A stretch of DNA of 64,000 nt from a virus (lineage: Duplodnaviria > Caudoviricetes). The notes under the pieces are model-generated. The model ran no database searches. It was not told the origin of the DNA and worked only from the letters and a program-made list of their open reading frames with translations. Positions 190-22,223 of the stretch are shown here, piece after piece. Within the stretch, counting starts at the first letter, position 1, and each line of letters starts with the position of its first letter. The stretch lies in IMG/VR virus record IMGVR_UViG_3300048549_001527; one strand, written 5' to 3'. The position numbers were made by a program, and so were the translations under genes.

Positions 190-492
190 TTATGTGTCAG
201 CTACAATAGTATCTTCAATTGCAGTATTACCTGTTACACCAGCGTCTCCAGCGTCTGATTGAGAAACTTTCATTGGTACTAAGCATTCTGCATGGTGGCG
301 CCCGCCATCTGTGTGGTATAACCACCAGCCCGGACCAGTAATACCTTTAGCACGGTTAGCAGCAACGCCAGCCTCAGTAAGATCAACAAAGATTGCGTTG
401 TCGCGATCATTTGATTTGTTTGTATTTGCCGCGTCGTCTTCCAACCATTTTGGAACGTCGGCTAATGTATCGGTTTTTCCCCAAAGTGCCAT
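190..492 (-). CDS. Hypothetical protein, probably late/virion
   Basis: 100-aa ORF with SD (aggag), downstream of the late promoter at 526-533. Confidence 0.6.
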   Translation of the reverse strand: MALWGKTDTLADVPKWLEDDAANTNKSNDRDNAIFVDLTEAGVAANRAKGITGPGWWLYHTDGGRHHAECLVPMKVSQSDAGDAGVTGNTAIEDTIVADT

Positions 493-536: not shown

Positions 537-731
537 TTAATCGGCGTCACGAAGTTCTTGTTCTTCCTTCATAGCCTTTTTAATTGCTTTACGGCGCTTG
601 TGAAGATATTCATCAGAACCGTCTACGTCGCCATCGTTATCAATGTCGGCGTCAGCTTGTCCAACTGGATCCATTTTCTTTTCTTCCAAAGCATCCAACA
701 ACTTGGATTTAAATGATGATGCAAAGTCCAT
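537..731 (-). CDS. Small charged protein with an EF-hand-like DxDxDGD loop, possible head internal protein
   Basis: DADIDNDGDVDGSDEYL motif; lies in the late internal-protein cluster. Confidence 0.55.
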   Translation of the reverse strand: MDFASSFKSKLLDALEEKKMDPVGQADADIDNDGDVDGSDEYLHKRRKAIKKAMKEEQELRDAD

Positions 732-745: not shown

Positions 746-1123
746 TTATGGATTAGATTGTTGTCTAGATTGTCTTGCTTGTTTGCGAGCCGCTTGATAA
801 TCGGATCTTGCTTTTTTAAGATCATTACGAGTATCGGTTGCGCGTTTCAATTCTTTTTGTTTACGTTTAAATGCGTCAGCTTTTGCCTGTCTTGCATCGT
901 TACGCCCAGCGCGAGAAACCCTAAGGTTTCCTTGTTTATTAACAAGACCACGACGTATACCTTTAGCCGCAAGTTTTGCAGCACCACCGATTACTTTACC
1001 GATGATTTCATTTAACTCTTCTTCAGTTAAATCATCTGGGTCAATATTTTCTTCGTGCATATGTTCCCATACGAGTGCGAGCTGCATCTCGTGCTCAGTC
1101 ATATGTGATTTAAACGTCTTCAT
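746..1123 (-). CDS. Putative internal head protein with capsid-targeting-like N-terminus
   Basis: Starts MKTFKSHMTE; acidic N-half, very basic C-half. Confidence 0.6.
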   Translation of the reverse strand: MKTFKSHMTEHEMQLALVWEHMHEENIDPDDLTEEELNEIIGKVIGGAAKLAAKGIRRGLVNKQGNLRVSRAGRNDARQAKADAFKRKQKELKRATDTRNDLKKARSDYQAARKQARQSRQQSNP

Positions 1124-1385
1124 TTATTATTATCCTTAACTTGTTTCTTCCAGGTATAATCCTGTGATAAACCATTTTAGGTATTTCTATTGTATCACGT
1201 TTATTTATAACAGTAGGCAGTTCATCATCAAATTGTATTTTCCAATCGTCCCCGTCTAAAACTGTAAACACCCTATTATGCTTATCTCTGTGCCAAACAT
1301 AATCATCGTTTGTTGTATTATACGGGTTAAATATTCTTATCCATTGGTTATCAGTCAAGTGTTCATCATAATATGGTTTTACCAA
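1110..1385 (-). CDS. Small cupin-like hypothetical protein
   Basis: WHRD and YHR motifs in a beta-rich sequence. Confidence 0.45.
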   Translation of the reverse strand: MVKPYYDEHLTDNQWIRIFNPYNTTNDDYVWHRDKHNRVFTVLDGDDWKIQFDDELPTVINKRDTIEIPKMVYHRIIPGRNKLRIIINEDV

Positions 1386-1912
1386 AAGAACGAGCCCCCA
1401 TTTTTTAATCCTAATTCATTCGCATATCGAGGTAAACGGCAAGACCAATATCCAGCTTTAGTTTTATCGTTTTTTAAATGACATTGGTGGCGAGCTGCGA
1501 AAGACTTGCGTGCCTCTTTATCATCAAAGTTTACGGCCAAACCGGACGTATCCCCAAAGGTTACTTTTTTGACTTTATCCCCATCTTTCACGTACACATA
1601 GAACTTTTTGGGACCACCTCTTTGTGGCTTATTGAGCTCAACATCTTTTTCTTCCCCTTCCAACATGGGAATGTCAAGTGGAACTCGCCGTCCTTCGTAA
1701 ATATCGTGTTCACCTATATCTGTTTCTAATAGGTCTTTATCGAAATAATTAGATGGGTTTATGATACCTTCTTTGAATAACTTACGCGCTTCAATAAAAA
1801 AATTGTAAAACGATTTGCTGTGCGGTCTATACACGCACTCTGCAAGTGGTATTTCGTTTTCTAAATGGTATACAATTCCTTCGTGTAAGTTATGCTTTAT
1901 AAAGGTTTTCAT
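1379..1912 (-). CDS. Conserved T4-like phage protein with capsid-targeting-like N-terminus
   Basis: Starts MKTFIKHNLHE; C-terminal KKFYVYVK...KKVTFGD...ARKSFAARHQC...YWSC module recalled from marine myoviruses. Confidence 0.6.
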   Translation of the reverse strand: MKTFIKHNLHEGIVYHLENEIPLAECVYRPHSKSFYNFFIEARKLFKEGIINPSNYFDKDLLETDIGEHDIYEGRRVPLDIPMLEGEEKDVELNKPQRGGPKKFYVYVKDGDKVKKVTFGDTSGLAVNFDDKEARKSFAARHQCHLKNDKTKAGYWSCRLPRYANELGLKNGGSFFW

Positions 1913-2166
1913 AATCTATCTTCCTTGCTGTCTAAACATCTTGTTGTAAACAATGCTGCATCTCTTGCAGTCTTAAAGTACATTGAGTGCTCGTGGAGAT
2001 CAGTCCACTTTTTAAATTTCCATCTGTAATCTTCAAGATGGTATTCCACCCACTTAATTGCTGCGAGCTTTTTGCTACTGTGAAACTTAATCTGTACACG
2101 ATCTTCGGATTTCATCCATTCCGCAATAACTGCTAAGTGCTCTTCTGATTTTGATCCCTTATTCAT
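1909..2166 (-). CDS. Hypothetical protein
   Basis: 85-aa ORF tightly packed in the operon. Confidence 0.5.
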   Translation of the reverse strand: MNKGSKSEEHLAVIAEWMKSEDRVQIKFHSSKKLAAIKWVEYHLEDYRWKFKKWTDLHEHSMYFKTARDAALFTTRCLDSKEDRL

Positions 2167-2169
2167 AGG

Positions 2170-2397
2170 TTAACCTCCAAACTCGTGACCTGCGACTCTT
2201 CGCATTTGTTTATTAAATTCTGCCTGTGATGGCTTTTCTTTATATAATTTAATAGAGATATTAGGTCTATCTTTACCTTTAATTCTCCAATTTTTTCCGT
2301 CTTCTTTGTGCTCAGGTTTAGTGGTTTTAACAACACGGCGCTTATATCCTGCTTCCCATGTTTCTGAACCTTCGCAAAACTGTTTAAAACTTTTCAT
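2170..2397 (-). CDS. Small putative internal head protein
   Basis: Likely start is ATG 2397 (SD aagggag), giving MKSFKQFCE. Confidence 0.6.
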   Translation of the reverse strand: MKSFKQFCEGSETWEAGYKRRVVKTTKPEHKEDGKNWRIKGKDRPNISIKLYKEKPSQAEFNKQMRRVAGHEFGG

Positions 2398-2399
2398 TG

Positions 2400-2720
2400 C
2401 TATTCTCCCTTTGGAACGCAATTAGGGACCATCTTATCCCCTTTTTTCTTCATACCAACTTGTTTATAATCAGACCAACAAGCTTCTTGCTGTCCAATTT
2501 CTTTATCATCTTGCGATTTCATATAATCCCGAGCAGTATCAATATAATCTGTAGCCTTAGTGATTTTGCTTTGTACCCACTCTGGCATATTTTCATCGTC
2601 AGACAACATATCATGCAATTGTTGTGCTGCATCAATCATGGTTTTTAGTTGGCCTTTTGCCATACTACCTTCGTTATCATATTCGTCTTTTGATTCTAAA
2701 AAAGATTTAAAGTTTTTCAT
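2400..2720 (-). CDS. Putative internal head protein
   Basis: Starts MKNFKSFLE; contains MPEWVQSKITKA and C-terminal EACWSDYKQVGMKKKGDKMVPNCVP modules. Confidence 0.6.
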   Translation of the reverse strand: MKNFKSFLESKDEYDNEGSMAKGQLKTMIDAAQQLHDMLSDDENMPEWVQSKITKATDYIDTARDYMKSQDDKEIGQQEACWSDYKQVGMKKKGDKMVPNCVPKGE

Positions 2721-3010
2721 TTCATCAACTTCTTTATTGCTGCCAACGCTTTTTTACCGTCGGGATGTTTTGGATTAATACCTACAGGTTCGCCATTCAC
2801 AAGTTCTGATACATTAACAGATTTCCGCAAAGCTGCAATTGCTTTATGTAAAGGATCTTTTGAGTCATACTTAGTTTCAAACCCTGGTTTGCCGCGAACT
2901 TCAACCCAAGATTTTTCATTACTGTCTTTTATTTTTAAAACGTCTTGAGACTTACCCCTAATGAGTTTAATCTTAAGACCTTCTGATACATATTGTTTAA
3001 AACTATACAT
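2717..3010 (-). CDS. Putative internal head protein
   Basis: Likely start is ATG 3010, giving MYSFKQYVSE. Confidence 0.55.
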   Translation of the reverse strand: MYSFKQYVSEGLKIKLIRGKSQDVLKIKDSNEKSWVEVRGKPGFETKYDSKDPLHKAIAALRKSVNVSELVNGEPVGINPKHPDGKKALAAIKKLMK

Positions 3011-3563
3011 ACTCTTTAATCTTTTTCTCAATCGCTGTAATGATTTTATTATGTGTTTTACTTAAATATCTATCACTGCGTAGGCGTTTGATAGCGAGCG
3101 AAGTTTGTGCAGCATATTTCTTTTGAAAATCTACAGGCCGCGTATCAATGTCTTGTACGTTTGCTAATCTATCAGCAAGTTTAATAACCAATGACCAACT
3201 TGACATTTTAGCCATCTTATTGGCAATGTATTCACCTTTACCAATCGCATCAGACGCAGCCTTATCAGTTGTTAATTCCTGAACCATATCAGCTACAAGA
3301 GCACCAAACTGTTTAACTAAATCAGCATATGTGGTATCAGTATCTTCAATAGTATCATGCAAATATGCTGCTTGTACTAATGCTGAGAGGTTGTTTGATT
3401 TTTTAAACTTTTGTACGAACCTAGCAACTTCTTTTGGATGCTCAATGTATTTACCACCGCTTTTACGCGTCTGCCCTGAATGAGCTTGAGTAGCAACACG
3501 TAAAGCTTTAAGCGCGCTTTCATTTAGTGTATCTTCAGATATGAATTTTTTAAAAGTTTTCAT
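3003..3563 (-). CDS. HD-domain small alarmone hydrolase-like protein (SpoT-hydrolase/Mesh1 family) with capsid-targeting-like N-terminus
   Basis: AH.GQ.RKSG..YIEHP, AAYLHDTIEDT, V.ELT.DK and IKLADRLANV motifs; starts MKTFKKFISE. Confidence 0.85.
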   Translation of the reverse strand: MKTFKKFISEDTLNESALKALRVATQAHSGQTRKSGGKYIEHPKEVARFVQKFKKSNNLSALVQAAYLHDTIEDTDTTYADLVKQFGALVADMVQELTTDKAASDAIGKGEYIANKMAKMSSWSLVIKLADRLANVQDIDTRPVDFQKKYAAQTSLAIKRLRSDRYLSKTHNKIITAIEKKIKEYV

Positions 3564-6496
3564 TTTTTAGCTTTTTTCTTTGCCATAATTTTCTTAGCCA
3601 TTTTATATACACCTTTAGCTGTAGCTTTGGCACCTTGAGCAACCATTGGAGCGGCAAGAGCAGCTCCTACAACTTCTGGCGGAATACTTTCCATTGGTGT
3701 ATCTTTTTTATATTTTTTAGTAAGCTCATTAGTTCCTTGCTCACCAGCACCACAGGATGCCTCTTTACGCATATCCTTATATGTAGGTTTTGCTTTTGGT
3801 TTATCAGCGTATTCATCCATTTCACCTGCAGCTTTTTTCTTTGCCGCCGCCGCAGCTGAAAATTTAGCTAAGTCTTCTTTTTCATCTTCGTCAATAGTTG
3901 GTGTAGTATTAATATGTTTCTTTGAGCTTTTTTCTTCACCATAGCCTGCTTTAAGACCGCCCATCATACCGCCATATGTTTTCTTTGTTGCAGATTTAGC
4001 ACTCATTGAAGGACGCTGTTTACCGCTTGCTTTATTTTCGCGTTCTTTGTCCTTTTTGATTTCTTCGGGGGTTGGCGCTGTATACTTTTCTAAAAACGCC
4101 ATAGCTTGCTCGTCAAGATTTGATTCTACGTAACCTTTATCACCAGGCTTTTTGCCGTGGTTCATAACCTTTTTACCAATAGCAGTAAGGTTACCTTTCT
4201 TATCATACATTTGATTGACAAGTTTCTTTTCTGATGGTGATAAAGTTTCATCAAGTTCTACTTCTTCGCGGATTTTAACTTTAAACATTTTTTCAACTGT
4301 TTGTTTACCCATAGTCTTAGCAAGATTAGTGATTAACCATTCACGTGGCTCTGTGTCAAGATCATCTACAAATTTAACAAAGTTTGTACCTGCGTTGCCA
4401 CTTGACAACATTTTTGCGGCTTTCATAAAGTCTGCTTTATCAATACCACCACTTTTCTTTGCGTATGCTTCAATACTTGCCGCAGCTTTTTTCATGGCAG
4501 GAGTTGCAGCTTCAATTATATTTTTATATGTTTTTGGCATCTGTTCGTTTCCTTCTCCGCGTAACGACGCAAGTGATCTTTGAGTTGAAGTCATGGTTTT
4601 CTTTGGCAGTTTACGGCCTGTTTTTACTGAACGGCCCATTGCCTTTGCGTGCGCTGCATCCTTAGCACGTTGAATAGCAATAGAGTCACCGGTCATTTTT
4701 GGCGCCTTTTCATCAAGTTGAGTTTCCTCTTTACGAACCTTGTCGGCAAGGTCTTTATCTGCCTTACCCCAAGTACCTGACGATTTTGTTATAAATGAAT
4801 TAACTCTTGCGTGTCCCCATTGCTCAGGAGTTGTGCCTGGGCGGTGACCTGTTCGCCATGCCGCCACGCCACGATTATAAACTTTACGTAAAATACCAGC
4901 AGGCATACCTGATTTCGCCGCTTTATCTTTTAAAGATTTGCCAGCTTTATCTTCTTGTAATCCATCGCCTTCGCAAGTACAAGGATCACAATTACATTGT
5001 CCGCAAACCCATTCCTCTACAAATGTTTCTGTTGCTTCATATAGTTCTGCAATATCTTCAATGTCAAACTCGTTTGCTTCTTTAACATCTTTTGGTTTGT
5101 ACATTTTAAATCTTTTATCAAATTTTACTTTTCCGTTTGCAGCATACAGCATATGTGGACGTTTCATAATACGTTTTCCCCATAGTCCTTCATCAAGACC
5201 TTCAACAAGTTCTTCCCAGATCAAGTCTTCCGTGAAACCCATAGCTCTTGCTTTTTTGGTAAACTTTGACTCTTTAGTCTTTGCTTCCTTATCACCAGGT
5301 GCAGGTTTGTACGCAGCAGGATTATCGTCAGACATCTTTGCGCCTTTTTCAAAATGAGCAGCGCGCGCATCTTTCTTATTTTTATCTACACCTTTATAAT
5401 AACCTTTTGGTTGAGAACCCGGACGATCTGACACGTCGCTATCTTGCGGCTTTGTCATTTTTTCCATGAACATTGCAAATTGTTCGTCAAGGCTAACTTC
5501 TTCCTTTTTTGAACGTGCCGACGCAAGTCGTTCTTGTTCTTTCTTTTTAACCATTGGTATCATTTTGCGCGCAAGTCTATCAATACGTGCAGGAGGTATT
5601 TTTTCCATACGTTTATCAATACGTTCTTTTTCAGCATATGACAAGCTTGCATACTTTTTAGGTTTTGCTAACCTATCTTTAATCATATTCCTAGCCGACT
5701 TTTGTGCTCTTTGTTTAATCTTTTTCATATCAGCTTTTTTACGCTTAGCCCGTTCTTGACCGCGCTTGATTTTTGCACGAGCCTTTCTCATAGACCGAGC
5801 TTTTTTAAATCTTTGAACTCTATTTAGAGCTTCATCCATTTCTAAGTCGTTTTCTTCTGACATGTTCATCCCCATGCTAACTAACGTTGCGATTTTGTCG
5901 GCATCCGTTTTTAATTTCTTAGGCAAATTTGATGTAAACTTTTTCATATCTGTCGATGCATAGCCTCGCATTTTAGTGCCAGAAATTCCAGATACATCAT
6001 CTGCGTCTGGGTCTCTGCTACCTGCTGATACTACTTTAATCTCATCAAACTTATATTCTTTGCCATTATATTTATTTAGTGTAGTATTAAATTCTTTAAC
6101 TCTATCAGAGCCAGCAACCAAAACAACCCGTTTAAATGATCTTTCAAGTTGTTTCATTAGTTGGAAAATAGTTTTAGCATTTGATTTTTTAACAACAGAA
6201 CCAAAAGCTTTTTGGGCAAAATTGATTTTGTCTTCGTAACCTAATGGATTTTTCTTTTTGTCAACTGTATGTGTAAGGAATACGTGCGGTATTCCCTTTT
6301 CAGATTTAGCAACAGAAATAACTTTATTAACTAATTTTTCATGGCCTGCGGTCATAGGGTTCATTCTACCCCACGCAACAACTGCTGTCGCACCAGCGGC
6401 CTCGTCTATCGTAGGCTCAAGCTCAATGTATTTGGCAGAGTCAAACTCTTTAAAACCTGCAATTTTTCTGTCTTTCTTTTTTTCTTTATCAGCCAT
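3560..6496 (-). CDS. 978-aa modular protein: N-terminal cytidylyltransferase/NadD-like (HIGH-motif) domain plus several internal-protein-like modules
   Basis: WGRMNPMTAGHEKL (TxGH), VAGSDRV and SAG.RDPD...GISGTKMR motifs; repeated LDE/xxE boundaries downstream. Confidence 0.75.
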   Translation of the reverse strand: MADKEKKKDRKIAGFKEFDSAKYIELEPTIDEAAGATAVVAWGRMNPMTAGHEKLVNKVISVAKSEKGIPHVFLTHTVDKKKNPLGYEDKINFAQKAFGSVVKKSNAKTIFQLMKQLERSFKRVVLVAGSDRVKEFNTTLNKYNGKEYKFDEIKVVSAGSRDPDADDVSGISGTKMRGYASTDMKKFTSNLPKKLKTDADKIATLVSMGMNMSEENDLEMDEALNRVQRFKKARSMRKARAKIKRGQERAKRKKADMKKIKQRAQKSARNMIKDRLAKPKKYASLSYAEKERIDKRMEKIPPARIDRLARKMIPMVKKKEQERLASARSKKEEVSLDEQFAMFMEKMTKPQDSDVSDRPGSQPKGYYKGVDKNKKDARAAHFEKGAKMSDDNPAAYKPAPGDKEAKTKESKFTKKARAMGFTEDLIWEELVEGLDEGLWGKRIMKRPHMLYAANGKVKFDKRFKMYKPKDVKEANEFDIEDIAELYEATETFVEEWVCGQCNCDPCTCEGDGLQEDKAGKSLKDKAAKSGMPAGILRKVYNRGVAAWRTGHRPGTTPEQWGHARVNSFITKSSGTWGKADKDLADKVRKEETQLDEKAPKMTGDSIAIQRAKDAAHAKAMGRSVKTGRKLPKKTMTSTQRSLASLRGEGNEQMPKTYKNIIEAATPAMKKAAASIEAYAKKSGGIDKADFMKAAKMLSSGNAGTNFVKFVDDLDTEPREWLITNLAKTMGKQTVEKMFKVKIREEVELDETLSPSEKKLVNQMYDKKGNLTAIGKKVMNHGKKPGDKGYVESNLDEQAMAFLEKYTAPTPEEIKKDKERENKASGKQRPSMSAKSATKKTYGGMMGGLKAGYGEEKSSKKHINTTPTIDEDEKEDLAKFSAAAAAKKKAAGEMDEYADKPKAKPTYKDMRKEASCGAGEQGTNELTKKYKKDTPMESIPPEVVGAALAAPMVAQGAKATAKGVYKMAKKIMAKKKAKK

Positions 6497-6528
6497 TTTG
6501 CCCTCAAGATAAAAACTATTCCCAATAT

Positions 6529-7359
6529 TTATAAGATTGAGTAACCCAACCTATTCATAAGATCTTCTCCCATAATTTTAGGAACCATATCTATAAATCT
6601 TTGCTCCAATTGAGTCGGAACACTTTTAACATAATAAGCTATACGATCTTTAGTCATAGGCTGTGACGAGCCAGAATGCATTGCCCAAGTATATTCAGGG
6701 AATTGATATTCAGGCCAACTGAACTTTTGCCACATTTCATTAAAAATGTCTTCACGTAAATCTTTATATAATAGATGTTCCCATTTGATAAGCATAGTTG
6801 TTTCTTTATTTTCGTCATAATATTTTAGCCAAGTATTGAACCAATGTTTATAGCATCTTAACATTTGGTCAGGGAAGCAAGTACCGTTTTCTTCAATATC
6901 AACTCTAGTCTTGTTTCTTTCCCATTGGTTTTGTATTTTATATGTTTCGCCATATGTTTGCTGCCAACCACCGTTTGAGGCTCCTCTTCTGTACATCATA
7001 GACTCAAGCCAAGTATACGGATTTTTGTGGTTTAAAACTACAGGCAAACCTGGGCGTAAAAGCTTTGGCACATTAAGTTCGTGTTTCCATGTTAGTAAGT
7101 CTGCGTTAGGTGGTTTAACCGTATGCGGGGTAAGATCGTTTGCTTTATTAAATTTAAAGTTATCGCGGATCATCCTGTCAATAATAGTTGTCCCTGTTCT
7201 TTGTAACCCAAATTGATAATATGCATAATACTTATGATCTTTCATAATATATTTTGCGCCGTCTTTTTCGATTTCAATTTCATGATCTAACATTTTTTGG
7301 TACCTCTTGAACTTGGCCTGTAAAATGCTCCTTAAACGAAGGTAGCAATTCTTTAACAT
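6529..7359 (-). CDS. Sulfotransferase-like protein
   Basis: FGLQRTGTT (5'-PSB-like) and KNPYTWLES (3'-PB-like). The true start is probably downstream of the annotated one. Confidence 0.6.
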   Translation of the reverse strand: MLKNCYLRLRSILQAKFKRYQKMLDHEIEIEKDGAKYIMKDHKYYAYYQFGLQRTGTTIIDRMIRDNFKFNKANDLTPHTVKPPNADLLTWKHELNVPKLLRPGLPVVLNHKNPYTWLESMMYRRGASNGGWQQTYGETYKIQNQWERNKTRVDIEENGTCFPDQMLRCYKHWFNTWLKYYDENKETTMLIKWEHLLYKDLREDIFNEMWQKFSWPEYQFPEYTWAMHSGSSQPMTKDRIAYYVKSVPTQLEQRFIDMVPKIMGEDLMNRLGYSIL

Positions 7360-8002
7360 TATTATGAGTTGCTGACCTACCCCATATTGTAGATTTCTTT
7401 AATGCGCCCATGCCAGCAATAGGATCAGTAATGGCCATTTTTGTTTTTGTATGTATTACGCGAGTATGCATAAAGTGCCTGTTATCAATAGCTTCAGTTA
7501 TACCGCTTTTTTCTATTTCGTCAACTAAAGTTTGAGCCATAACATGAGTAATTGCATATGCGTGAGACCCAGGATGAAACTGAACATCAACTAATTTTTT
7601 TGGCGGACCTGCAGATTGATAATCATACTTATCCCAATCGTAGTATTTATATCCTAATGCTACAATTCTATCATCAGGAATATCTAAATCAAGTGGATGA
7701 AGCATAATACCGTCGTGTTCTAATATAATAACGCATTCTTTATTTTTAGAAATACGTCGCCACAAATGAGCATGGCTTGCAGTACATCCTGCAGCTCCTT
7801 TATCCATAGGTTTAAACTTTGGAACCGTAACATCAGCTGTATCTTTAAAATTTTTCCAAAGATCTTTTTGATTGGTGGGTTTATAACCTTTATAATATTC
7901 CCACGGCAATCCAACCTTATCACAAGACTCGGCTGATGTTTTTGCGTATTCAATAGACACAGGATCGTCGTGATACATTATATAAGCTTTACTTACTTTC
8001 AT
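7280..8002 (-). CDS. Glycosyltransferase family 25-like protein
   Basis: GCTASHAHLW, IILEHDG and GSHAYAIT motifs. Confidence 0.65.
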   Translation of the reverse strand: MKVSKAYIMYHDDPVSIEYAKTSAESCDKVGLPWEYYKGYKPTNQKDLWKNFKDTADVTVPKFKPMDKGAAGCTASHAHLWRRISKNKECVIILEHDGIMLHPLDLDIPDDRIVALGYKYYDWDKYDYQSAGPPKKLVDVQFHPGSHAYAITHVMAQTLVDEIEKSGITEAIDNRHFMHTRVIHTKTKMAITDPIAGMGALKKSTIWGRSATHNNVKELLPSFKEHFTGQVQEVPKNVRS

Positions 8003-8718
8003 TATATAATATCCTTAATAAAAAGTGAATTGATTTGAAGGTTAACTGGCAAGTGTTTATTGTGATGCGCTAACTTGTAAACCGGTGCTGTAAAGTTTTG
8101 TACCGTTTTAGCAACGATAGAAAGATGCCTAGAGTCGTAAGGAGCAAATACATGCGGGTTACTTCCATCATATGATGCCGGGCTCCATGTTGCATTATAC
8201 TTTTTTACTTTATCCCACTTATCTTTAAACTCAGGTAACTGATTATAGCAAGAATCAAAACAAAAATGAAACCACAAATAATCGTGAAACTTTTGTCTCA
8301 TATCCCAATAATTATCTACTGTTTCTTTCCATTTGTCAACTAAAAAATTACCTTTTTCACCATATAAAAACCAACTACAAACATTATTGCGGTTTGTAGG
8401 TTTTGAAAAGGCAAAGAAGCCTTTTGACGCGTACTCAGGTAACCATTCATCAAGCGGCTTATTAAACAACACCGTTGCATCAACCCATACGCCACCATAC
8501 TTGTTAAGAAGAGAAATACGGATGATATCTGAATACGCAGCCAAAGGACCAGGATGATAAACGTCACTAATGTATTCTTTTAAGTTAACATCCGTAAGTT
8601 CAACAACATTCCAATCTAAGTTGTAATGCTTAATGCTTTTTAAACATTCTTTAACTAAAGGTGGTGCATTATCAAATCCTTGAGACCAATATACCCATAT
8701 GTTTTTATTCATAACCAA
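8002..8718 (-). CDS. Capsular polysaccharide synthesis protein (DXD glycosyltransferase, GT32-like)
   Basis: IWVYWSQG...AP..V..C, SDIIRISLLNKYGGVWVDAT motifs. Confidence 0.75.
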   Translation of the reverse strand: MVMNKNIWVYWSQGFDNAPPLVKECLKSIKHYNLDWNVVELTDVNLKEYISDVYHPGPLAAYSDIIRISLLNKYGGVWVDATVLFNKPLDEWLPEYASKGFFAFSKPTNRNNVCSWFLYGEKGNFLVDKWKETVDNYWDMRQKFHDYLWFHFCFDSCYNQLPEFKDKWDKVKKYNATWSPASYDGSNPHVFAPYDSRHLSIVAKTVQNFTAPVYKLAHHNKHLPVNLQINSLFIKDII

Positions 8719-9367
8719 ACAACTCCAAATCTTTGTGTATATATGGATACAAATCTTTTTTGATTTTAGGAGTTAGGTAATCGTCATAATCTTTTCTTTC
8801 AGATTTATTATGGTGACCAAACTCAACTTTCATATTGAGCTTTTCTGATATAGTCTTTTCGGCTTTATCTTTTTCTTCTAACTTAAATACGTCGTCAACA
8901 AGTAAGTTAAGATGCTGGTCGTAAACAAACTTATACTGAGGAGCATTATGAGGTCTGTTTAACTTCATTTGATAGGTACTTTCCATCGACTGCATTCTTA
9001 TTTGAGCTTCTAAGTTATGAGTACGTTGCCCTAAATGTTGTTGTTTCCATATAGTTTCAGATACAAATCTGTGCCATGGATTACGAACAAATGCAAATGT
9101 ATAGTTTGAATTACAAAAAGAAGGATCGTTCCATTCTTTTAATTGCCATGCTGATAAATGTTGCGTTTCTCCAGTCGGTAATCGCTCAGGAGTTTTTTGA
9201 CCAAAATGGTATTTGGCACCAACTTCTCGACCGAGCTGTTCAAACATTTTGCCATTATCTTGCATATTTGGAAAACCACAAACGTTTCGGAAGAAAAACA
9301 TTTCAACCGAGGTTCCACCACACTTTGGGATATGAATAAAATATGTATTGATTTCTGGTATGTACAT
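8705..9367 (-). CDS. Sulfotransferase family 2 protein
   Basis: FIHIPKCGGTSV and FAFVRNPWHRFVS motifs. Confidence 0.8.
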   Translation of the reverse strand: MYIPEINTYFIHIPKCGGTSVEMFFFRNVCGFPNMQDNGKMFEQLGREVGAKYHFGQKTPERLPTGETQHLSAWQLKEWNDPSFCNSNYTFAFVRNPWHRFVSETIWKQQHLGQRTHNLEAQIRMQSMESTYQMKLNRPHNAPQYKFVYDQHLNLLVDDVFKLEEKDKAEKTISEKLNMKVEFGHHNKSERKDYDDYLTPKIKKDLYPYIHKDLELFGYE

Positions 9368-10020
9368 TATATAAAAGCCTGAGGAACTATGTCTTTATTC
9401 CACCAATATTTGTAGTCTTGCCTGTAATAGAATTTGATTGTATTTATATCATTTTCAGTAAGCTTTATTTTATCTTTATGTTCAGATCCACCGGTTTGAC
9501 GTTTAATTGGCTGTACGTCTCTTCCGCTTATTTTTGAAAGAAACTTTGCAACCTTATCCATTTCGTTGATTGTGAATACTTTATCAAATTTTTCGGGTTC
9601 GTATCCTATTTCTCTGACCATAGGTAAAGTATGGTGAGTAAGATCACCGTTATTGTATTTACCGAGGCGTAACACAAACTCTTCCCAACCGCCAGGAACC
9701 GATCCTTTGCCGTGGTATAAAACTCTATTTGTGTATGCTGATTTTAATCGTTCTATAGGATCACGTATCATACAAATCCTATAGTGTATTTTATCGTAAA
9801 AATTTTCATCGTGGAGCTTGTGAAACTTAGTACTTTGCCCGCGGTACGAGTCTTTATAATCTCGTTCTTTTTCAGGCTTGCCCCAATCTCTTGAAATTTC
9901 ATTGTGCCAATCTAAACCTTCAGCATCAAGCATCATTGTTTTAACCGAGGTTCCACCACACTTTGGTGTATGTACAAAACTAACAACTATATCATTTATA
10001 TTTGCACAAAATCTTGGCAT
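9367..10020 (-). CDS. Sulfotransferase family 2 protein
   Basis: FVHTPKCGGTSV and IRDPIERLKSAY motifs. Confidence 0.8.
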   Translation of the reverse strand: MPRFCANINDIVVSFVHTPKCGGTSVKTMMLDAEGLDWHNEISRDWGKPEKERDYKDSYRGQSTKFHKLHDENFYDKIHYRICMIRDPIERLKSAYTNRVLYHGKGSVPGGWEEFVLRLGKYNNGDLTHHTLPMVREIGYEPEKFDKVFTINEMDKVAKFLSKISGRDVQPIKRQTGGSEHKDKIKLTENDINTIKFYYRQDYKYWWNKDIVPQAFI

Positions 10021-10042
10021 AATATACTTATACTCCTATAAA

Positions 10043-10068
10043 CAAAAAGGGCAACCAAAGCTGCCCTG
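10043..10068 (-). terminator. Intrinsic terminator
   Basis: Minus strand gggcagc-tttg-gttgccc followed by ttttt. Confidence 0.65.
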
Positions 10069-10069
10069 T

Positions 10070-10077
10070 TATTTATA
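10070..10077 (-). promoter_or_regulatory. T4-type late promoter TATAAATA
   Basis: Exact consensus upstream of the sulfotransferase/GT genes. Confidence 0.65.
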
Positions 10078-10285
10078 AGACTTTACAGTCAAAGTTAGAT
10101 GGTCCATTTTGTATGGGTACTCCGCCTGCTTCTATGCAAGCTTCACCCCAAGTAGGTTGTTTAAACTCTTGAATTACTGCAAAAAACCCAAATGCAATAC
10201 ACACTACAGTCAAAAGTGTCATTACAAAGAAAGAGTAGAAACCAACCTTGTCGACTATTTCAGCCGCAGGCGTTGTTGGGCCCAT
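10073..10285 (-). CDS. Small membrane protein
   Basis: One hydrophobic segment; C-terminal C...C pair. Confidence 0.5.
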   Translation of the reverse strand: MGPTTPAAEIVDKVGFYSFFVMTLLTVVCIAFGFFAVIQEFKQPTWGEACIEAGGVPIQNGPSNFDCKVL

Positions 10286-10510
10286 TTAGACAACGGCAAA
10301 CATTAACAACAACGCTACAAGAAACGCAAAGATTCCTAACGCTTCAGCAAATGCAATACCAACAAACATTGTGGATGTATCAGATTTTTTAGGCATTACT
10401 TTAAATACGCTACCAACAATCATTCCAACTGCAATAGCTGCGCCACCCATACCAAAAGTAGCAAGGCCTGCGCCAATCAAGGCACCCATCGTTGCAATAT
10501 CACCGGTCAT
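10286..10510 (-). CDS. atpE: ATP synthase F0 subunit c-like protein with a divergent loop
   Basis: GAGLA..G.GGAAI.VG glycine stripe and [26 protein letters not shown]-terminal helix with the conserved Glu. Confidence 0.9.
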
Positions 10511-10688
10511 TATACAACCCTTTGATTTCCATCATACACGCTTTCGATTCCTCGTGATATCCAAGTCTTGCGAGCTCCGCTGCCGCTCTCGAGTATCCCA
10601 CTACTTGGGCCCAACGATCTATTGAAGACCACAAGCCAGACAATGGCGAAAAGACATAATTGCTTACTAATGCTGTCATTAAACCCAT
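10500..10688 (-). CDS. Small hypothetical protein, Rhodobacteraceae-like
   Basis: [17 protein letters not shown] pattern; coupled to the DUF1127 gene. Confidence 0.55.
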
Positions 10689-10933
10689 CCCTGTAAATTG
10701 TTATTTGCTTTTACATTATCAATGCAGGTTGACGTACGAGCGATTGTATAAATGTCGCCACGTGTAATTCCAATATCATCTAGTTCTGCATTTGTTAATG
10801 ATCGTAAAGCTTTTTCCGTTTGGCGAATTGCTTTACGTTCAATTCTTTTTTCGTTTACTGATTTTAAAAAATCTAATAGGCCTTCGATTGCGCCTGTTAA
10901 GTGGCTGTGCGCCGTAAGGATTGCTTGTGTCAT
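10679..10933 (-). CDS. DUF1127 (YjiS-like) small protein
   Basis: R...R.T.K.LRSLTNAELDDIGITRGDI signature. Confidence 0.8.
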   Translation of the reverse strand: MTQAILTAHSHLTGAIEGLLDFLKSVNEKRIERKAIRQTEKALRSLTNAELDDIGITRGDIYTIARTSTCIDNVKANNNLQGWV

Positions 10934-11101
10934 TTCCGTTTCCTCTAATATATGTGTATGTATGATCCGATCCTAGACCCCACGCCTAGGTTTAATCCTT
11001 TTTACAAATATATTTATTAGAGAAATGGGTAAACAATGGTTACCAATTTGATATAGCCGGATTGCTTCTAATGCAACAGCGACATTATGTCAAATTGACT
11101 T

Positions 11102-11482
11102 TTAAGAATATCCGCCGGTTTTATTTAGTTTGAGGATGCAATGGAATTCACCATCACCAATGAGGCGAATATCAGCTTCAGAATATGCGTTGTCTACGAA
11201 ACCAACAAAGGTATGTTCAGATGCCCCAACCAAATAGTAATGACCGTGTGACGCAACGCCGTCCCATCTGTTTACATCAATATGCTTATTTGGTTTTACA
11301 CCCCAGAATATTTCTTTGAGAGTAACATTAGCATCGCCTGCAGTATAAGTTTCGCCTGGTGCTATAAGTGTAGATAAAGCAATATCAACTATTTCGCCAG
11401 AAGCTTCTGAAGAGTAAACTTTGACTACTGCTTCGTTTTTATCTCGTTTTAAGTAATGTATTTCAGCCATTATTTCTGCCAT
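11102..11482 (-). CDS. Hypothetical protein
   Basis: 126-aa ORF overlapping the upstream stop. Confidence 0.5.
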   Translation of the reverse strand: MAEIMAEIHYLKRDKNEAVVKVYSSEASGEIVDIALSTLIAPGETYTAGDANVTLKEIFWGVKPNKHIDVNRWDGVASHGHYYLVGASEHTFVGFVDNAYSEADIRLIGDGEFHCILKLNKTGGYS

Positions 11483-12711
11483 CCCTTAATATATTTGTCT
11501 GAAAAGTTTGCTGCTGAAAATTGTAAGCGGTCAACAAGTTTTAACGCATTCTTACCATAACGGTCGATTGCCACAAAACCTTCTTGGCCTGTAACTTCAA
11601 ATCCTTTATTCGTTTTAAGCAATGTTTTCAATCCGTCAACTTTTTCAAGTTTGCGTACGATCATATGTTTTGCATCTACGATTAGGTTATACATTGTGAA
11701 TAAATTTTCAATATCTTTTGGTTTGTTTGTTTTAAAGAACTTCATTGCGTCGGCTTTCTTAGCTTCCCAAGTTGCCTTACCTTTTGGTGATTTCTTTGCG
11801 GCAATTTCTCCATCGTACCAATCGTTAAGATATTTTGTTAATCCTTTAACAAACACTTTTGGATTACCTACACGCTGGCCTTCACGTACTTTAACGTTAA
11901 TATAGGTATTTACTCTCATATTGAGTTCTTTATTGGTTGAAGGCAGTAAACCATCAAATGTCTTTTTAGGAATTACACGAAATAATGTTCCGATTTGAGA
12001 AAGGATCCTTGTAATTTCTGCAGTTTCGTCTGCGGTAAAATTAGCTGTACCTGATTGATCTTTAAATACTGCATCAACTGACCATACTGATTTTACTTTT
12101 TTGAGGCTTGAAGCAATCTCCTCTCCAAAACTTGCAGACATTGATTCAAACGCATCTCCTCGGTAGACTGTATGCCAGACCACACCGACCTTGGATCCGA
12201 GTATTGCTTTACCAAGTTCTGATGATTTAGGTACCGCATAAACAATCGTATTAGGATGGAAAGTAAGATGCGATTCACCATCAATCGTTTCTTCTTTAAT
12301 ATCACTTCTTTCATATAAAAAATCGCCTTGTACTACACCCTTAATCCCAAGTTTTGAAAACTCGTCAAGGGCAACTTTCAATTTGGAATTAAGATCGCCT
12401 TTACCAACAGTATCAGCATCAATATCAGCATGCGTTTTGTAAACTTTAGGGTTTTTATTAAACACGCCTTTTTTAGCTACAAAGAACTTTCCGTCACTTG
12501 GATCTGTTCCTGCAAATACGGCTGGAGCGCCATCCCATTTAACACTTATGTTAACAGCAGACTTAGTGTTGCCGCTAAGCATATCACGAATATCACGGAG
12601 ATAGTTGATAACATTTCTTGTTCCTTTTATACCGCCATCTATAACAGCATCTTCAGCATGCGTCATATGAAGATTTTTATCTTCTGTTATAAACGATTTA
12701 AAACTTTTCAT
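11470..12711 (-). CDS. Conserved T4-like phage protein with ATP-dependent ligase-like nucleotidyltransferase motifs and capsid-targeting-like N-terminus
   Basis: SVKWDG (motif I), VQGDFLY (III), QEGFV (IV), LKLV (V); starts MKSFKSFITE. Confidence 0.6.
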   Translation of the reverse strand: MKSFKSFITEDKNLHMTHAEDAVIDGGIKGTRNVINYLRDIRDMLSGNTKSAVNISVKWDGAPAVFAGTDPSDGKFFVAKKGVFNKNPKVYKTHADIDADTVGKGDLNSKLKVALDEFSKLGIKGVVQGDFLYERSDIKEETIDGESHLTFHPNTIVYAVPKSSELGKAILGSKVGVVWHTVYRGDAFESMSASFGEEIASSLKKVKSVWSVDAVFKDQSGTANFTADETAEITRILSQIGTLFRVIPKKTFDGLLPSTNKELNMRVNTYINVKVREGQRVGNPKVFVKGLTKYLNDWYDGEIAAKKSPKGKATWEAKKADAMKFFKTNKPKDIENLFTMYNLIVDAKHMIVRKLEKVDGLKTLLKTNKGFEVTGQEGFVAIDRYGKNALKLVDRLQFSAANFSDKYIKGWQK

Positions 12712-13481
12712 ATTTCTACCTTAAATAGCTGTGCAATAGATTTTTCCATTACATCTAAATTTATCATTACATTCTTTGCACTTGTTACTGGCGCAATGTT
12801 ATAATCTGACCGATTCTGTCTAATTATACCAAATGTTAACTCAAATGTAAACTGATAATTTCCGCCACCTTTGTTTTGTACTCTTGCCCTATAACCTGCT
12901 GTTGCTAATTTACCAAAGGTTCTTAGTCCTTTTAGATTTAACGGATTTTTCTGTCCTAGCAAATACAAGCCGTGTGTACCAACATTAATATAATAAGTGT
13001 CCTTTGTGTTATAATAGCCTTCTATTTCAGTAGATGGTATTTCACCTTTTACATCAGGAAACCTTTTCAGTTCTTTTGCGTATTGTTCTCTTTTTGTTAA
13101 TATTTTCTTTTCGTTTATCAATAATGCAGAAGTAGCAAACTTATATGACTCAATACCGTCCCACGCTTTGTTAATTTTGTCTAATGCCTTTGCGCGTATT
13201 GCAACTGCTTTTATAAATCTTTTTTCAACATCTTTTACTGGTATTTCATCAAATTGCCATTTACCATTTATATATTTTAAAACTAAAGATCCACCTGATG
13301 CCGCTGGCGATATCTTTAATTCACAGCCGCTTTGTCCTAATGCCCTAGGTCCTGGCTTTTTAATTATTAAATCCGGTTGATCTGCTCCTGCTCCTGCTGG
13401 AGTAAAAGTAGCCGGTACTAAATCATATTTCTTTAACGCATCCGATGCGTATCGCTCATATACAAAACCTAACTGTGCCAT
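12708..13481 (-). CDS. PD-(D/E)XK nuclease-like protein
   Basis: YERY...QPDLII...GCELK arrangement. Confidence 0.55.
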   Translation of the reverse strand: MAQLGFVYERYASDALKKYDLVPATFTPAGAGADQPDLIIKKPGPRALGQSGCELKISPAASGGSLVLKYINGKWQFDEIPVKDVEKRFIKAVAIRAKALDKINKAWDGIESYKFATSALLINEKKILTKREQYAKELKRFPDVKGEIPSTEIEGYYNTKDTYYINVGTHGLYLLGQKNPLNLKGLRTFGKLATAGYRARVQNKGGGNYQFTFELTFGIIRQNRSDYNIAPVTSAKNVMINLDVMEKSIAQLFKVEI

Positions 13482-14536
13482 TAGAAATTAATTTTATTAT
13501 TAACCTTAACATCTGGGTCAGTTTCAAAGAATGACATTACGTTTGATACCTTGCCTGAAATAAACGATCTAGCCTTTTTGATACCTTGACCGATCTTACC
13601 TTTTAACCTGCTGATAACGTTTCTAAACATTCCTTCTTCAAGCTCAACTTCTTCTTTGAGTTTTGCATCAACGATAAGTGAAATAACAGACCAGAAGTTA
13701 TACTCGCCAGTTTTTACGCCTTTTAATTTACGGGAGGATGTTTTAAACCGAGCTTGTAGCTTCATTGCATCAGCAATCTTTTTACAATACGCATCGTCAT
13801 ATACTGAGGTGATTTTAGTTGAAGATCCGTTGTGATCTGATACAACCATAAACTCTGCGGCTGAATTACTTGTTTCGCCATACTTAACAAAACCTGACAT
13901 AGCTTCACGCGCAAACTCAATTTTAAATTGTTCACTTTCCTCAAACAACTTGCCGAGTTCAACCATAATTTGTTTATGAGCAGCTTCACCTCGGTTAACT
14001 ACCGGATTATTTCCTGCTTTAATAATAGGTCTTAATTGAGATGGTGCAAGCTGGGCAGTAACAAAGTCATCAAAAATACCTAATACTTTTTTTAGTTGCG
14101 GCGATTTTGAAATATTTACTTTTTCCATCGCAGCATAAAAAGTTGCAGTTGACTCTGCTTTACCGCCTGACATTAATTGTGCCATACCAATTTTCAATGA
14201 TAGTCTTTTATCGCCAATTAGTATATCGGTTTTTGGAGTTGTATCAGTAGCACCGTGGCCGCTCCAAAAAGAAGTAAGACTTGATTTAGCACGACCATAT
14301 TGTTCAGCTTTAACTTTGTCGCCAAGTTTAAAATGAGATTTAATTGATTGTGCAATTTTTTTACCGGCATCAACATACTGAGGTTGCGCCATAATGCTAT
14401 CGTATACCTTTTGCGATATACCCGCAGCTTCAGGATTAATTTCTTGTCCAGTGATTTCGTGCCATCCAATCACAATTGCCGCTTCAAAATCTTCAGCCTT
14501 AATAGCTTCGGTAAGGTGTGTCTTGAACCCCTTCAT
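13481..14536 (-). CDS. PD-(D/E)XK-like nuclease with capsid-targeting-like N-terminus
   Basis: DFEAAI...PKTDILIGDKRLSLK; starts MKGFKTHLTE. Confidence 0.5.
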   Translation of the reverse strand: MKGFKTHLTEAIKAEDFEAAIVIGWHEITGQEINPEAAGISQKVYDSIMAQPQYVDAGKKIAQSIKSHFKLGDKVKAEQYGRAKSSLTSFWSGHGATDTTPKTDILIGDKRLSLKIGMAQLMSGGKAESTATFYAAMEKVNISKSPQLKKVLGIFDDFVTAQLAPSQLRPIIKAGNNPVVNRGEAAHKQIMVELGKLFEESEQFKIEFAREAMSGFVKYGETSNSAAEFMVVSDHNGSSTKITSVYDDAYCKKIADAMKLQARFKTSSRKLKGVKTGEYNFWSVISLIVDAKLKEEVELEEGMFRNVISRLKGKIGQGIKKARSFISGKVSNVMSFFETDPDVKVNNKINF

Positions 14537-14566
14537 AGTCTTTCCTCTTATAGAATAATCTAGGGT

Positions 14567-14574
14567 TATTTATA
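14567..14574 (-). promoter_or_regulatory. T4-type late promoter TATAAATA
   Basis: Exact consensus about 30 nt upstream of ATG 14536. Confidence 0.7.
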
Positions 14575-14580
14575 AAATAT

Positions 14581-14760
14581 TTAGATCCTCTGCATCACAA
14601 AAGCTGGTATGTTACCTTCAAACCCAGAACCTAAATTGAGTTTACGAGCCATATCGTTTGCTTTTTGCTTATCAAGACTTAGTTGAATTGGAAGATCTTG
14701 ATCTTTGTCCCAAATCATATATTGATCTTTTACTTCAGTTTTGCGTACTACGTAACTCAC
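14581..14760 (-). CDS. 59-aa hypothetical protein (not in ORF track)
   Basis: GTG start overlapping the gp41 stop: MSYVVRKTEVKDQYMIWD...RKLNLGSGFEGNIPAFVMQRI. Confidence 0.55.
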   Translation of the reverse strand: MSYVVRKTEVKDQYMIWDKDQDLPIQLSLDKQKANDMARKLNLGSGFEGNIPAFVMQRI

Positions 14761-16178
14761 ATTAAATCTCCTGTATCAAATAAACCTTTTTTCTTTTTGC
14801 CAAATTGAGTATTATCAAATATTGGGGTATCTGTTAAGGATGGTTTTTGAAAAGACGTGTTGGCTGCAGGCTGGTCATTTGATATTCCATTTTGCGCGCC
14901 ATCTTCCAAATCGTATAATTTCATTTTTGATCTATCAACACCAACCACAAACCTACGATAATAACTAAGATCGTTCCAACGGTTTTTCAACTGTTTAATC
15001 ATTAGTTGTCCAAGCTGATCTAAATCTTCAGATGTGATTAGGCCTAGAATACAGTCAGCAGTATGGGTAATTCCCATACTTTCAGAAGTATTAGTGAGAT
15101 CCACGTCAGAGTTGCCGTAACCATCACGATTAAACTGAGAACTAGTAACCACAGCACAATTATATTCCATCGCAAGACCACGTACCTCCTCAGCGATTGA
15201 TTTTACAAGAGTGTATGAGTTAGCCGCCGCGGCGCCTTTTACTCTTGCAGACGCACAAATATTCAAATAGTCAATAAAGATAATATCAGGCGCAAAGTTG
15301 CGTTTCATTTTTAATTCGTTAAGTAAATGCCTAAAGTGGCCAACATGAGCAGAGCCAGTTGGATATTCTTTAACGACTAACTTACCAGTTGTTTTTGATG
15401 TAAATCTGCCAATTCTTTTTGCAAACACGTCGCGTGGAGTTTCAGAAACTTCGTCAATAGTAACGTCCATCATATTAGCATCAATACGTTCAGAGATGCG
15501 TTCTTCAGCCATTTCCATTGTAATATATAAAACGTTCTTACCCATCATTAATGCCGACGCAGCATGGTGACATTTGACTAATGATTTACCACCACCAGTT
15601 GTGGCGAGCAATACAGTCATAGATTTGCGAGGTAGACCACCTTTAGTAATCTTGTTGAGTAATTCAATATCGAATGGAATGCGCTCTTCTTTCTTATGAT
15701 AAAAGTCATAGCGGCTTTCGTAGTCTTCGAGATAATCGTGGCCGATGCTTGTATCAAAACTGATTGATAATGAATTAGATAATAACTCAGGTAATGAACC
15801 TTTATCCATTTCTTTATCTTCGCCGTCAATTACGAGGATTGCTTTACGAATAGAATTGAATAAGTCTTTATCTTGACAAAACTTTTCGGTTTCTTTTACA
15901 AGCCAATCAAAGTCTGTTCCTTGGTCAATTGCCATATTATCAACCTCGGACATAATGCCTTTATAACTATCTTCATTAAGGTCTTTACGTTTATCCAACG
16001 AAATCTTTAATGCTTCAATTGAAGGCGGAGATTTGTATTCATCAACATATCCAGAATACGTATCAAATATTTTCTTAAGGCTATTATCGTCAAAATACTC
16101 CTGTTTGATGTAAGGATATACTTTACGAAAATAATCTTCGTTAAATATTAAGTTTGCTAATACTGTTTTTTCAATCAT
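14757..16178 (-). CDS. 41: Replicative DNA helicase gp41
   Basis: Walker A ATTGGGKS, FIDYLN, SSQFNRDG, KQLKNRW; T4 gp41 architecture. Confidence 0.95.
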   Translation of the reverse strand: MIEKTVLANLIFNEDYFRKVYPYIKQEYFDDNSLKKIFDTYSGYVDEYKSPPSIEALKISLDKRKDLNEDSYKGIMSEVDNMAIDQGTDFDWLVKETEKFCQDKDLFNSIRKAILVIDGEDKEMDKGSLPELLSNSLSISFDTSIGHDYLEDYESRYDFYHKKEERIPFDIELLNKITKGGLPRKSMTVLLATTGGGKSLVKCHHAASALMMGKNVLYITMEMAEERISERIDANMMDVTIDEVSETPRDVFAKRIGRFTSKTTGKLVVKEYPTGSAHVGHFRHLLNELKMKRNFAPDIIFIDYLNICASARVKGAAAANSYTLVKSIAEEVRGLAMEYNCAVVTSSQFNRDGYGNSDVDLTNTSESMGITHTADCILGLITSEDLDQLGQLMIKQLKNRWNDLSYYRRFVVGVDRSKMKLYDLEDGAQNGISNDQPAANTSFQKPSLTDTPIFDNTQFGKKKKGLFDTGDLM

Positions 16179-21819: not shown

Positions 21820-21965
21820 TAATCTTTTTTCCTAACATACCAAGTAGTGTGGTTACCAGACCACTCGAGAGTATCGCCTTCTTTCCAATCGAGCTCTTCT
21901 AACATTTCCTTAGGTATGTCTAGGTAGAGGTCCCCGGTTTGGGGATCCTCTTTTACTTCCATCAT
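21819..21965 (-). CDS. 48-aa AbrB/MazE-like small DNA-binding protein (not in ORF track)
   Basis: MMEVKEDPQTGDLYLDIPKEMLEELDWKEGDTLEW...; IP.E.L..L.W.EGD pattern. Confidence 0.6.
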   Translation of the reverse strand: MMEVKEDPQTGDLYLDIPKEMLEELDWKEGDTLEWSGNHTTWYVRKKD

Positions 21966-21972
21966 TTTCATT

Positions 21973-22220: not shown

Positions 22221-22223
22221 CAA

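Follow-up and report, generated by a model that had tools for sequence, protein, structure and literature searches.

In bacteriophage T4 the route of internal proteins into the head depends on a short N-terminal leader, and the first 10 residues of one of them, IPIII, suffice for packaging (PMC9026906). Residues 4 and 7 of this leader serve for targeting, and residues 8 and 10 for processing; another packaged protein, Alt, is cut at both termini (PMC9026906). In the T4 record both IPII and IPIII begin with MKTYQEFIAE/A (the slash marks a known or candidate cleavage position, and φ will stand for a hydrophobic residue), and the maturation site of the capsid protein gp23 reads ...AQAFGSFLTE65/AEIGG. 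Here we analyse a leader of the same appearance, found on eight genes of the tailed phage recorded in IMG/VR as IMGVR_UViG_3300048549_001527, in a stretch of 64,000 nucleotides that is considered at its full length and will be called the window. We argue that this shared N-terminus is probably a T4-type capsid-targeting propeptide, which marks the proteins that are packaged in the phage head.

The virion proteomes of cyanophages repeatedly contain odd 'non-structural' proteins (a cytidylyltransferase, kinases, an S-adenosylmethionine (SAM) hydrolase), and their authors could not choose between cargo and contamination. Such entries would be explained by a shared T4-type tag, which would also yield a sequence rule for packaged proteins in ocean phages that are abundant and mostly uncultured.

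One leader on eight genes

The region of interest, 746-14536 on the minus strand, lies downstream of the gp41 helicase, UvsX, gp32 and gp59 genes, within the replication and late-gene region of a T4-like phage. A sequence-only reading of the window had claimed that eight open reading frames (ORFs) share one N-terminal motif there. All eight are present on this strand with the N-termini that it quoted, and the same ORF starts appear in independent gene calls on metagenome contigs. Their consensus is M-K-x-F-K-x-(F/H/Y)-φ-x-E: position 4 is F and position 7 is F, H or Y in each of the eight, the closing Glu being residue 9 to 11 of the leader. MKSFKSFITEDK is an example of leader residues 1-10 or 1-12. 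The tagged proteins, with their length in amino acids (aa) and, where given, the isoelectric point (pI) of the mature part, are the following.

746..1123, minus strand: tagged protein 1, 125 aa, MKTFKSHMTE/H, basic, mature part pI 10.0
1379..1912, minus strand: tagged protein 2, 177 aa, MKTFIKHNLHE/G, phrog_7595 domain
2170..2397, minus strand: tagged protein 3, 75 aa, MKSFKQFCE/G, basic, mature part pI 10.1
2400..2720, minus strand: tagged protein 4, 106 aa, MKNFKSFLE/S, acidic, mature part pI 4.7
2717..3010, minus strand: tagged protein 5, 97 aa, MYSFKQYVSE/G, basic, mature part pI 10.0
3003..3563, minus strand: tagged protein 6, 186 aa, MKTFKKFISE/D, by family a RelA/SpoT-type HD hydrolase, small-alarmone-hydrolase-like
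11470..12711, minus strand: tagged protein 7, 413 aa, MKSFKSFITE/D, DUF6267
13481..14536, minus strand: tagged protein 8, 351 aa, MKGFKTHLTE/A, predicted restriction-endonuclease fold

The motif is specific to these genes. When run on the 243 first-ATG ORFs of at least 40 aa in the 64 kb, the loose pattern ^M..[FY]..[FYHILM].{1,3}E matches the eight ORFs and no other genuine ORF start. The sequence-only reading had also proposed a scan with a position-specific scoring matrix (PSSM) of the motif; carried out on the ATG starts of the window in a leave-one-out manner, it gives the members scores of 7.6-20.6, to be compared with a best of 4.3-5.9 among the 718 other starts, so that the members separate from all of these. 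The upstream DNA of the eight starts is mutually unrelated, the conserved tag positions use varying synonymous codons (AAA or AAG, TTT or TTC, CAT or CAC, GAA or GAG), and no similarity was found when the eight mature parts were compared with each other. It follows that conservation operates at the level of the peptide, and does not reflect a duplicated cassette. The likeness to T4 that had been claimed for this leader stands as well: MKTYQEFIAE of IPII and IPIII fits the pattern, which was built from the window only.

The tagged genes were further said to form two blocks downstream of late promoters, and an exact, late-promoter-like TATAAATA box indeed heads each block.

14567..14574, minus strand: TATAAATA box heading block 1, exact match, about 30 nucleotides (nt) upstream of the ATG at 14536
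6526..6533, minus strand: TATAAATA box heading block 2, exact match, about 30 nt upstream of the ATG at 6496
1202..1209, minus strand: internal TATAAATA box, exact match, inside ORF 1110-1385 and 86 nt upstream of the 1123 start

In block 1 the box is followed by GAGGAAAG, and a Shine-Dalgarno sequence comes after each of the block-heading boxes. Overall, TATAAATA is modestly enriched in the window (17 matches against 8.9 expected), and late transcription of the tagged blocks from promoters of this type is what we propose. At least eight other window genes preceded by TATAAATA, including a signal-peptide operon (52379-55828), lack the tag, which is thus not a general property of late genes.

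Tagged proteins in the virions of cultured relatives

Proteomes established by mass spectrometry on purified virions were compared for three cultured Kyanoviridae, S-SM1, S-SZBM1 and S-CREM2. Downstream of gp41, both S-SM1 and S-SZBM1 have a gene block that is syntenic with the window locus, and six products of the S-SM1 block were detected in purified virions (Sullivan et al., 2010, PMC3037559). The S-SM1 cytidyltransferase GC190, which starts with MKKFSAFLNE, is tagged and virion-detected, with 25 peptide counts, as is GC1455, which starts with MLSFKELQE; GC71, the DUF6267 homologue, starts with MCDSTL..., has no leader and is not flagged as detected (PMC3037559). T4-GC15, which had been considered as the DUF6267 homologue of S-SM1 in place of GC71, was rejected, its coordinates being those of the baseplate module. 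In S-SZBM1 the cytidylyltransferase (MRFRQFIIE) is likewise both tagged and virion-detected.

A scan of relatives had been suggested together with that of the window. The strict PSSM made from the eight tags found a single weak match in S-SM1, being too narrow for that phage; a looser pattern was therefore used, and it was fixed before S-CREM2 was seen. This window-derived pattern matches 5 of the 219 annotated N-termini of S-CREM2, a phage for which 52 virion proteins are listed (Li et al., 2023, PMC10665884). Of the five matches, four are on this list, which comprises 52 of the 219 proteins (Fisher one-sided p=0.012): a SAM hydrolase (MKDFDSFLEE), a kinase (VKRFDAFLTE), a cytidylyltransferase (MKNFSSFLTE) and gp136 (MQTFSMFFSE). 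The fifth, CP12 (MSNFTPYSEYFE), fits poorly. Near-variants of the tag are also found on S-CREM2 virion proteins, namely on gp13 (MKDLHSFLTE) and on a Cas9-like protein, where ...LRFASFMAE follows a 17-residue extension. The presence of tag-bearing proteins in purified virions of cultured relatives suggests that the window phage probably brings finished enzymes along when it infects the next host.

What is accessible of the S-SM1, S-SZBM1 and S-CREM2 proteome papers makes no mention of an N-terminal tag, and literature searches found no paper that connects a capsid targeting sequence with cyanophages or with Synechococcus. As a mechanism, this has its precedent in T4. New are the distant marine lineage and the larger and more enzymatic cargo, and, as far as the searchable literature shows, the proposal that the tag accounts for puzzling entries of cyanophage proteomes.

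The leader ends in φ-x-E, as the maturation site of T4 gp23 does, and this end can be compared with the site at which capsid proteins of related phages mature. A metagenome scan with S-SM1 gp21 retrieved 80 loci, all belonging to other phages and none lying on contigs known to carry the window phage. In this survey of Kyanoviridae-like metagenomic phages, 61 distinct gp23 N-termini display a φ-x-E motif at the matching position, in an equivalent φ-L-x-E junction such as ILTE/T, VLNE/T, FLTE/Q or MLTE/A; I, V, M, L and F are all in use at these junctions. The specificity required of the protease by the tags thus appears to be conserved in the lineage. Relatives with the same kind of tags encode gp21, gp22 and gp23.

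A probable capsid address and its alternatives

If the leader is a capsid-targeting propeptide, transcription of the eight genes would start late, at TATAAATA promoters, during the assembly of proheads. The leader of about 10 residues, with its aromatics at positions 4 and 7, would dock each protein on the scaffolding core, with the result that the protein is enclosed in the prohead, where a head protease of the gp21 family would cut after the Glu of the closing φ-x-E. The mature proteins would remain in the DNA-filled head until the next infection, when they would exit together with the DNA. As cargo we predict an alarmone (ppGpp/ppApp-type) hydrolase, an RNA-ligase-like nucleotidyltransferase, a nuclease of HinP1I/MspI fold and five small, mostly basic proteins. 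The sequence-only reading had already singled out three tagged proteins as an alarmone hydrolase, a ligase-like nucleotidyltransferase and a nuclease, assignments that hold at the level of family or fold. Its interpretation of the motif as capsid targeting is supported too, by indirect evidence: docking, cleavage, ejection and the action of the cargo on arrival are steps that we infer.

Several observations weigh against this interpretation. The gp21, gp22 and gp23 genes are outside the window; cleavage and ejection would follow from the analogy with T4 only, and the virion data concern relatives of the window phage. At the third residue before the cut (P3), half of the tags have I or L (NLHE, FISE, FITE, HLTE), and the other four have M, V or F. 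The proteome test is small, with five matches in S-CREM2 and two clear ones in S-SM1. The authors of the S-CREM2 proteome say of such enzymes that they 'may be encapsulated' but might also be contaminants, and they concede that late proteins, if abundant, may co-purify with virions (PMC10665884). Finally, GC190 was undetected in the older proteomes of S-PM2 and Syn9, in a comparison based on detection alone.

Could the leader be nothing else than a site for the head protease, or for another late protease, that switches enzymes on or off late in infection, with no loading into the head? In the homologues the best-conserved element is the φ-x-E junction, and in the 351-aa protein the folded domain ends with a second invariant φ-x-E (E301), as this explanation would have it. 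Yet the aromatics at 4 and 7, the targeting positions of T4, are kept as well as the cut site, and tag-bearing proteins of relatives are physically present in virions purified on caesium chloride (CsCl), so that we hold it to be quite improbable. Just as improbable, in our view, is that the tagged proteins are abundant late proteins which co-purify with virions, their motif being a feature of translation efficiency or some other late localisation signal. The S-CREM2 authors themselves raise contamination (PMC10665884), and AAA and TTT are favoured codons in this genome of 36% GC. However, the motif is absent from the other genes preceded by TATAAATA, a composition-aware leave-one-out scan reveals no look-alikes, synonymous codons vary, and the motif matches a targeting signal that was defined experimentally in T4; moreover, in S-SM1 the untagged neighbour GC71 is not flagged, whereas tagged GC190 reaches its 25 peptide counts.

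The tag might also send proteins to another compartment of the virion (tail, baseplate or capsid exterior) rather than to the interior of the head. Virion proteomics gives no location, and in S-CREM2 gp136, with its MQTFSMFFSE, belongs to the neck/terminase module; but the closing motif is the same as the maturation site of the capsid protein, which is cut inside the prohead, and the mature part is basic in six of the eight proteins, with a pI of 9.3-10.1 that suits DNA-associated internal proteins. We give this possibility a marginally smaller chance than the two preceding ones. As for a resemblance due to chance or to base composition, devoid of any shared function, it is effectively refuted: the shortness of the motif and the frequency of K and F in an AT-rich genome speak for it, but there are eight matches and no other genuine start in 64 kb, the leave-one-out separation is clear, and the same leader recurs in hundreds of metagenomic relatives, where most close homologues of the HD protein have it, as do 108 of 120 close homologues of DUF6267.

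The preferred reading thus being that of a capsid-targeting propeptide, a wider proposal can be made. The tag could be a portable capsid address used across marine T4-like (Kyanoviridae-related) phages, making the packaged and injected set readable from sequence, and this set could amount here to an injected enzyme kit; we advance this tentatively, at slightly less than even chances. If it is true, the kit would include an alarmone hydrolase that is the first to be predicted as delivered by virions, as well as an RNA-ligase-like enzyme and a nuclease with a restriction-endonuclease fold. It would act before phage gene expression, and its targets could be, for instance, unmodified host DNA or defences based on alarmones or ribotoxins. 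The pre-made injected enzymes so predicted are candidates for immediate factors of counter-defence or takeover. The counter-defence role of the cargo is our hypothesis, suggested by the classes of the enzymes.

The predicted enzymes of the cargo

The HD protein (3003-3563) matches Pfam HD_4 at 4e-16, with 59.6 bits for a cut-off of 27.2. Its matches in the PDB are Rel hydrolase domains, MESH1/HDDC3, small alarmone hydrolases and a (p)ppApp hydrolase, the best E being 1e-15; MESH1 and the small alarmone hydrolases are found at E 1e-15 to 6e-7. Its segments YIEHP, LHDTIEDT and KLADRLAN align with YITHP, LHDTVEDT and KVADRLHN of Rel, where the HD/ED metal-binding motifs reside. At the family level this protein is a RelA/SpoT-type hydrolase, for which hydrolysis of (p)ppGpp or (p)ppApp is predicted. 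Homology to solved structures begins at residue 18-19, which places the tag outside the fold, and the tag is kept on most close homologues.

The second protein (11470-12711) matches Pfam DUF6267 at 1.6e-108. Across 101 sequences, with a mean column identity of 34%, D130, E377, G378 and K391 are invariant, and at least 90% of the sequences share K58, D60, G61, Q128, G129 and L392-V393-D394-R395. The motifs K58-W-D60-G61 (KxDG), Q128-G-D130, E377-G378 and K391 come in the order of nucleotidyltransferase motifs (I, III, IV, V). The AlphaFold2 (AF2) model has a predicted local distance difference test (pLDDT) score of 94, with residues 1-4 disordered. In a structure search the top 18 of 48,161 chains were all RNA or DNA ligases (Z 8.5-5.9), led by Naegleria RNA ligase (8.5), REL1 (8.0), Trl1 (8.0) and T4 Rnl2 (7.9), with the caveat that these Z values are middling and that Foldseek alone gives weak ligase matches. 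Comparison with the PDB by sequence or profile returned no ligase match, and an ESM Atlas search returned DUF6267 clusters only. Motif and modelled fold, taken together, point to a covalent nucleotidyltransferase of ligase fold.

The tag is borne by 108 of 120 close DUF6267 homologues. Among 150 diverse representatives of the family, some have a tag-type leader of 12-20 residues and others begin at the conserved NLHxxHxED. In representative P0363 a KKFYVYVK-like stretch, which by eye recalls tagged protein 2, comes directly after the tag in an N-terminal extension. Other representatives (P0420, P0472, P0492, P0506) have DUF6267 fused behind a HIGH-motif cytidyltransferase/NMNAT-like domain, and such fusions suggest that the products of two neighbouring genes work together here.

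The third enzyme-like protein, of 351 aa, has an AF2 model with a mean pLDDT of 83 and disordered residues 1-9. Foldseek relates it to MspI (E 4e-4), and VIA to HinP1I (Z 10.9 and 10.8), MspI (10.1) and HhaI (6.6), in alignments that cover 162-202 residues, the next match being at 3.1; a comparison with the PDB by sequence gave nothing meaningful. The model assigns it, at the level of the fold, to the restriction endonucleases HinP1I, MspI and HhaI. Enzymes of this PD-(D/E)XK type have a catalytic D...(N/Q)-x-K triad. In the family of the 351-aa protein the invariant residues are P101, D104, S113, K115 and E128, which gives D-x8-S-x-K, and D104...S113-x-K115 could be the active site.

In 120 homologues of this protein the leaders are 10 to about 30 aa long, and those inspected close with φ-φ-x-E directly before the conserved KAEDFEAAIV. 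Many homologues, in the range P0024-P0087, have another leader of some 30 residues, typically MSLQxYVRQLRPR...VDKVQxFLxE, with the same junction and a φ-L-x-E end. This could represent another type of leader, or else a propeptide with two sites. At the end of the folded domain, residues 295-301 contain a φ-x-E whose Glu, E301, is invariant in 62 homologues within an otherwise variable linker. By analogy with T4 Alt this is a candidate second protease site, where a cut would remove the low-confidence C-terminal tail of 50 residues.

Among the small tagged proteins, number 4 has a C-terminal Cys-containing module that is common to many PHROGs, and number 3 is also called as 75 aa on metagenome contigs. 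Those of 125, 75 and 97 aa gave no Pfam or PHROG family.

Untagged genes and genome context

The blocks also comprise genes without the tag.

12708..13481, minus strand: untagged 257-aa ORF, starts MAQLGFVYE, translationally coupled between tagged genes
11102..11482, minus strand: untagged 126-aa ORF, last of block 1, from the ORF list
3560..6496, minus strand: 978-aa cytidyltransferase-like/DUF5824 protein, first gene of block 2, from Pfam and PHROG matches

The 978-aa protein has no tag at its N-terminus, and a displaced tag-like stretch, IAGFKEFDSAKYIELE, occupies residues 12-27. Its N-terminal part is 40% identical over 185 aa to GC190 of S-SM1, and it is probably packaged too. Two acidic linkers, EEVSLDE near residue 332 and EEVELDE near residue 744, are similar to EEVELEE, a linker in the 351-aa protein. 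The 978-aa protein may be packaged and cut into pieces by the head protease. In Stenotrophomonas phage DLP_6 the cytidyltransferase (13724-15892) begins with MKNIKDILEA, a leader of Ile/Leu type.

For the 257-aa ORF (12708-13481) there is no Pfam family and a weak match to phrog_26930; BLASTP of this ORF and of the 351-aa protein with GC1453 of S-SM1 and gp134 of S-SZBM1, which occupy the same position, found no similarity. The family search was negative for the 126-aa ORF (11102-11482), in place of which some metagenome variants have a gene of 261-287 aa; near-identical metagenome contigs differ in gene content around this point. Between the tagged blocks lies an untagged insert (6529-10933, minus strand), which encodes two sulfotransferases, two glycosyltransferases, an ATP-synthase-c-like protein and a DUF1127 protein.

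Beyond tagged protein 1, a 100-aa ORF (190-492, minus strand, MALWGKTD...) resembles the N-terminus of S-SM1 GC425, and an Asp-rich ORF of 64 aa (537-731, minus strand) the N-terminal region of GC1454, both of which are virion-detected in S-SM1; the block of virion proteins thus extends to the left edge of the window, behind a further TATAAATA box at 533-526.

Megablast against the phage collection found no close sequenced relative of the window DNA, and near-identical DNA in IMG/VR is limited to a 5.4-kb fragment. For the DNA polymerase the best match among phages, from cyanophage S-RIM8, has 44% identity. Many marine metagenomes contain near-identical contigs, including one of 191 kb (ENA ERZ23491181 scaffold_13). 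Elsewhere in the window (21139-22766, minus strand) are genes for a heme oxygenase and a ferredoxin-dependent bilin reductase, typical auxiliary genes of cyanophages.

Comparison with known systems

With IPII and IPIII of T4 the window proteins share a leader of about 10 residues that starts M-K-x-aromatic at position 4, has another aromatic at 7 and ends in φ-x-E before a small or polar residue; in both cases the genes are late and the cargo is otherwise unrelated. The differences are of detail and of scale. Position 4 is Y in T4 and F here, position 5 is Q in T4 and K or I here, and position 7, F in T4, is here F, H or Y. There are at least eight cargo proteins in the window, against three internal proteins in T4, and they include sizeable enzymes of 186-413 aa. 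The window phage, moreover, belongs to a distant lineage related to Kyanoviridae, and packaging and cleavage are predicted for it.

Alt, the packaged and injected ADP-ribosyltransferase of T4, is comparable in being an enzyme within the head that is processed by gp21, and the 351-aa protein similarly has candidate sites at its two ends. The classes of enzyme differ, and the injection and activity of Alt have been demonstrated whereas those of the window proteins are predicted. The ejection proteins of giant phages (phiKZ, SPN3US) offer a further parallel: many packaged proteins are delivered to the host there, and the head protease recognises a short x-x-E motif and cleaves after its Glu. In these phages, by contrast, the motif is A-x-E or S-x-E, most propeptides exceed 100 residues, and there is no shared address tag of 10 residues. 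Phages C48C1 and DLP_6 have a leader of the same kind as the present one on a DUF6267 homologue, and C48C1 has it on several neighbouring genes as well.

The virion-associated 'non-structural' proteins of cyanomyoviruses are also comparable, with a syntenic block in S-SM1 and S-SZBM1, a homologous cytidyltransferase and a tag of the same kind. Their set consists of a cytidylyltransferase, an APH/ChoK-like kinase and a SAM hydrolase in S-CREM2, and of a cytidylyltransferase in S-SM1 and S-SZBM1. The cargo predicted for the window phage differs from it by an alarmone hydrolase, a tagged DUF6267 protein and a protein with a restriction-endonuclease fold.

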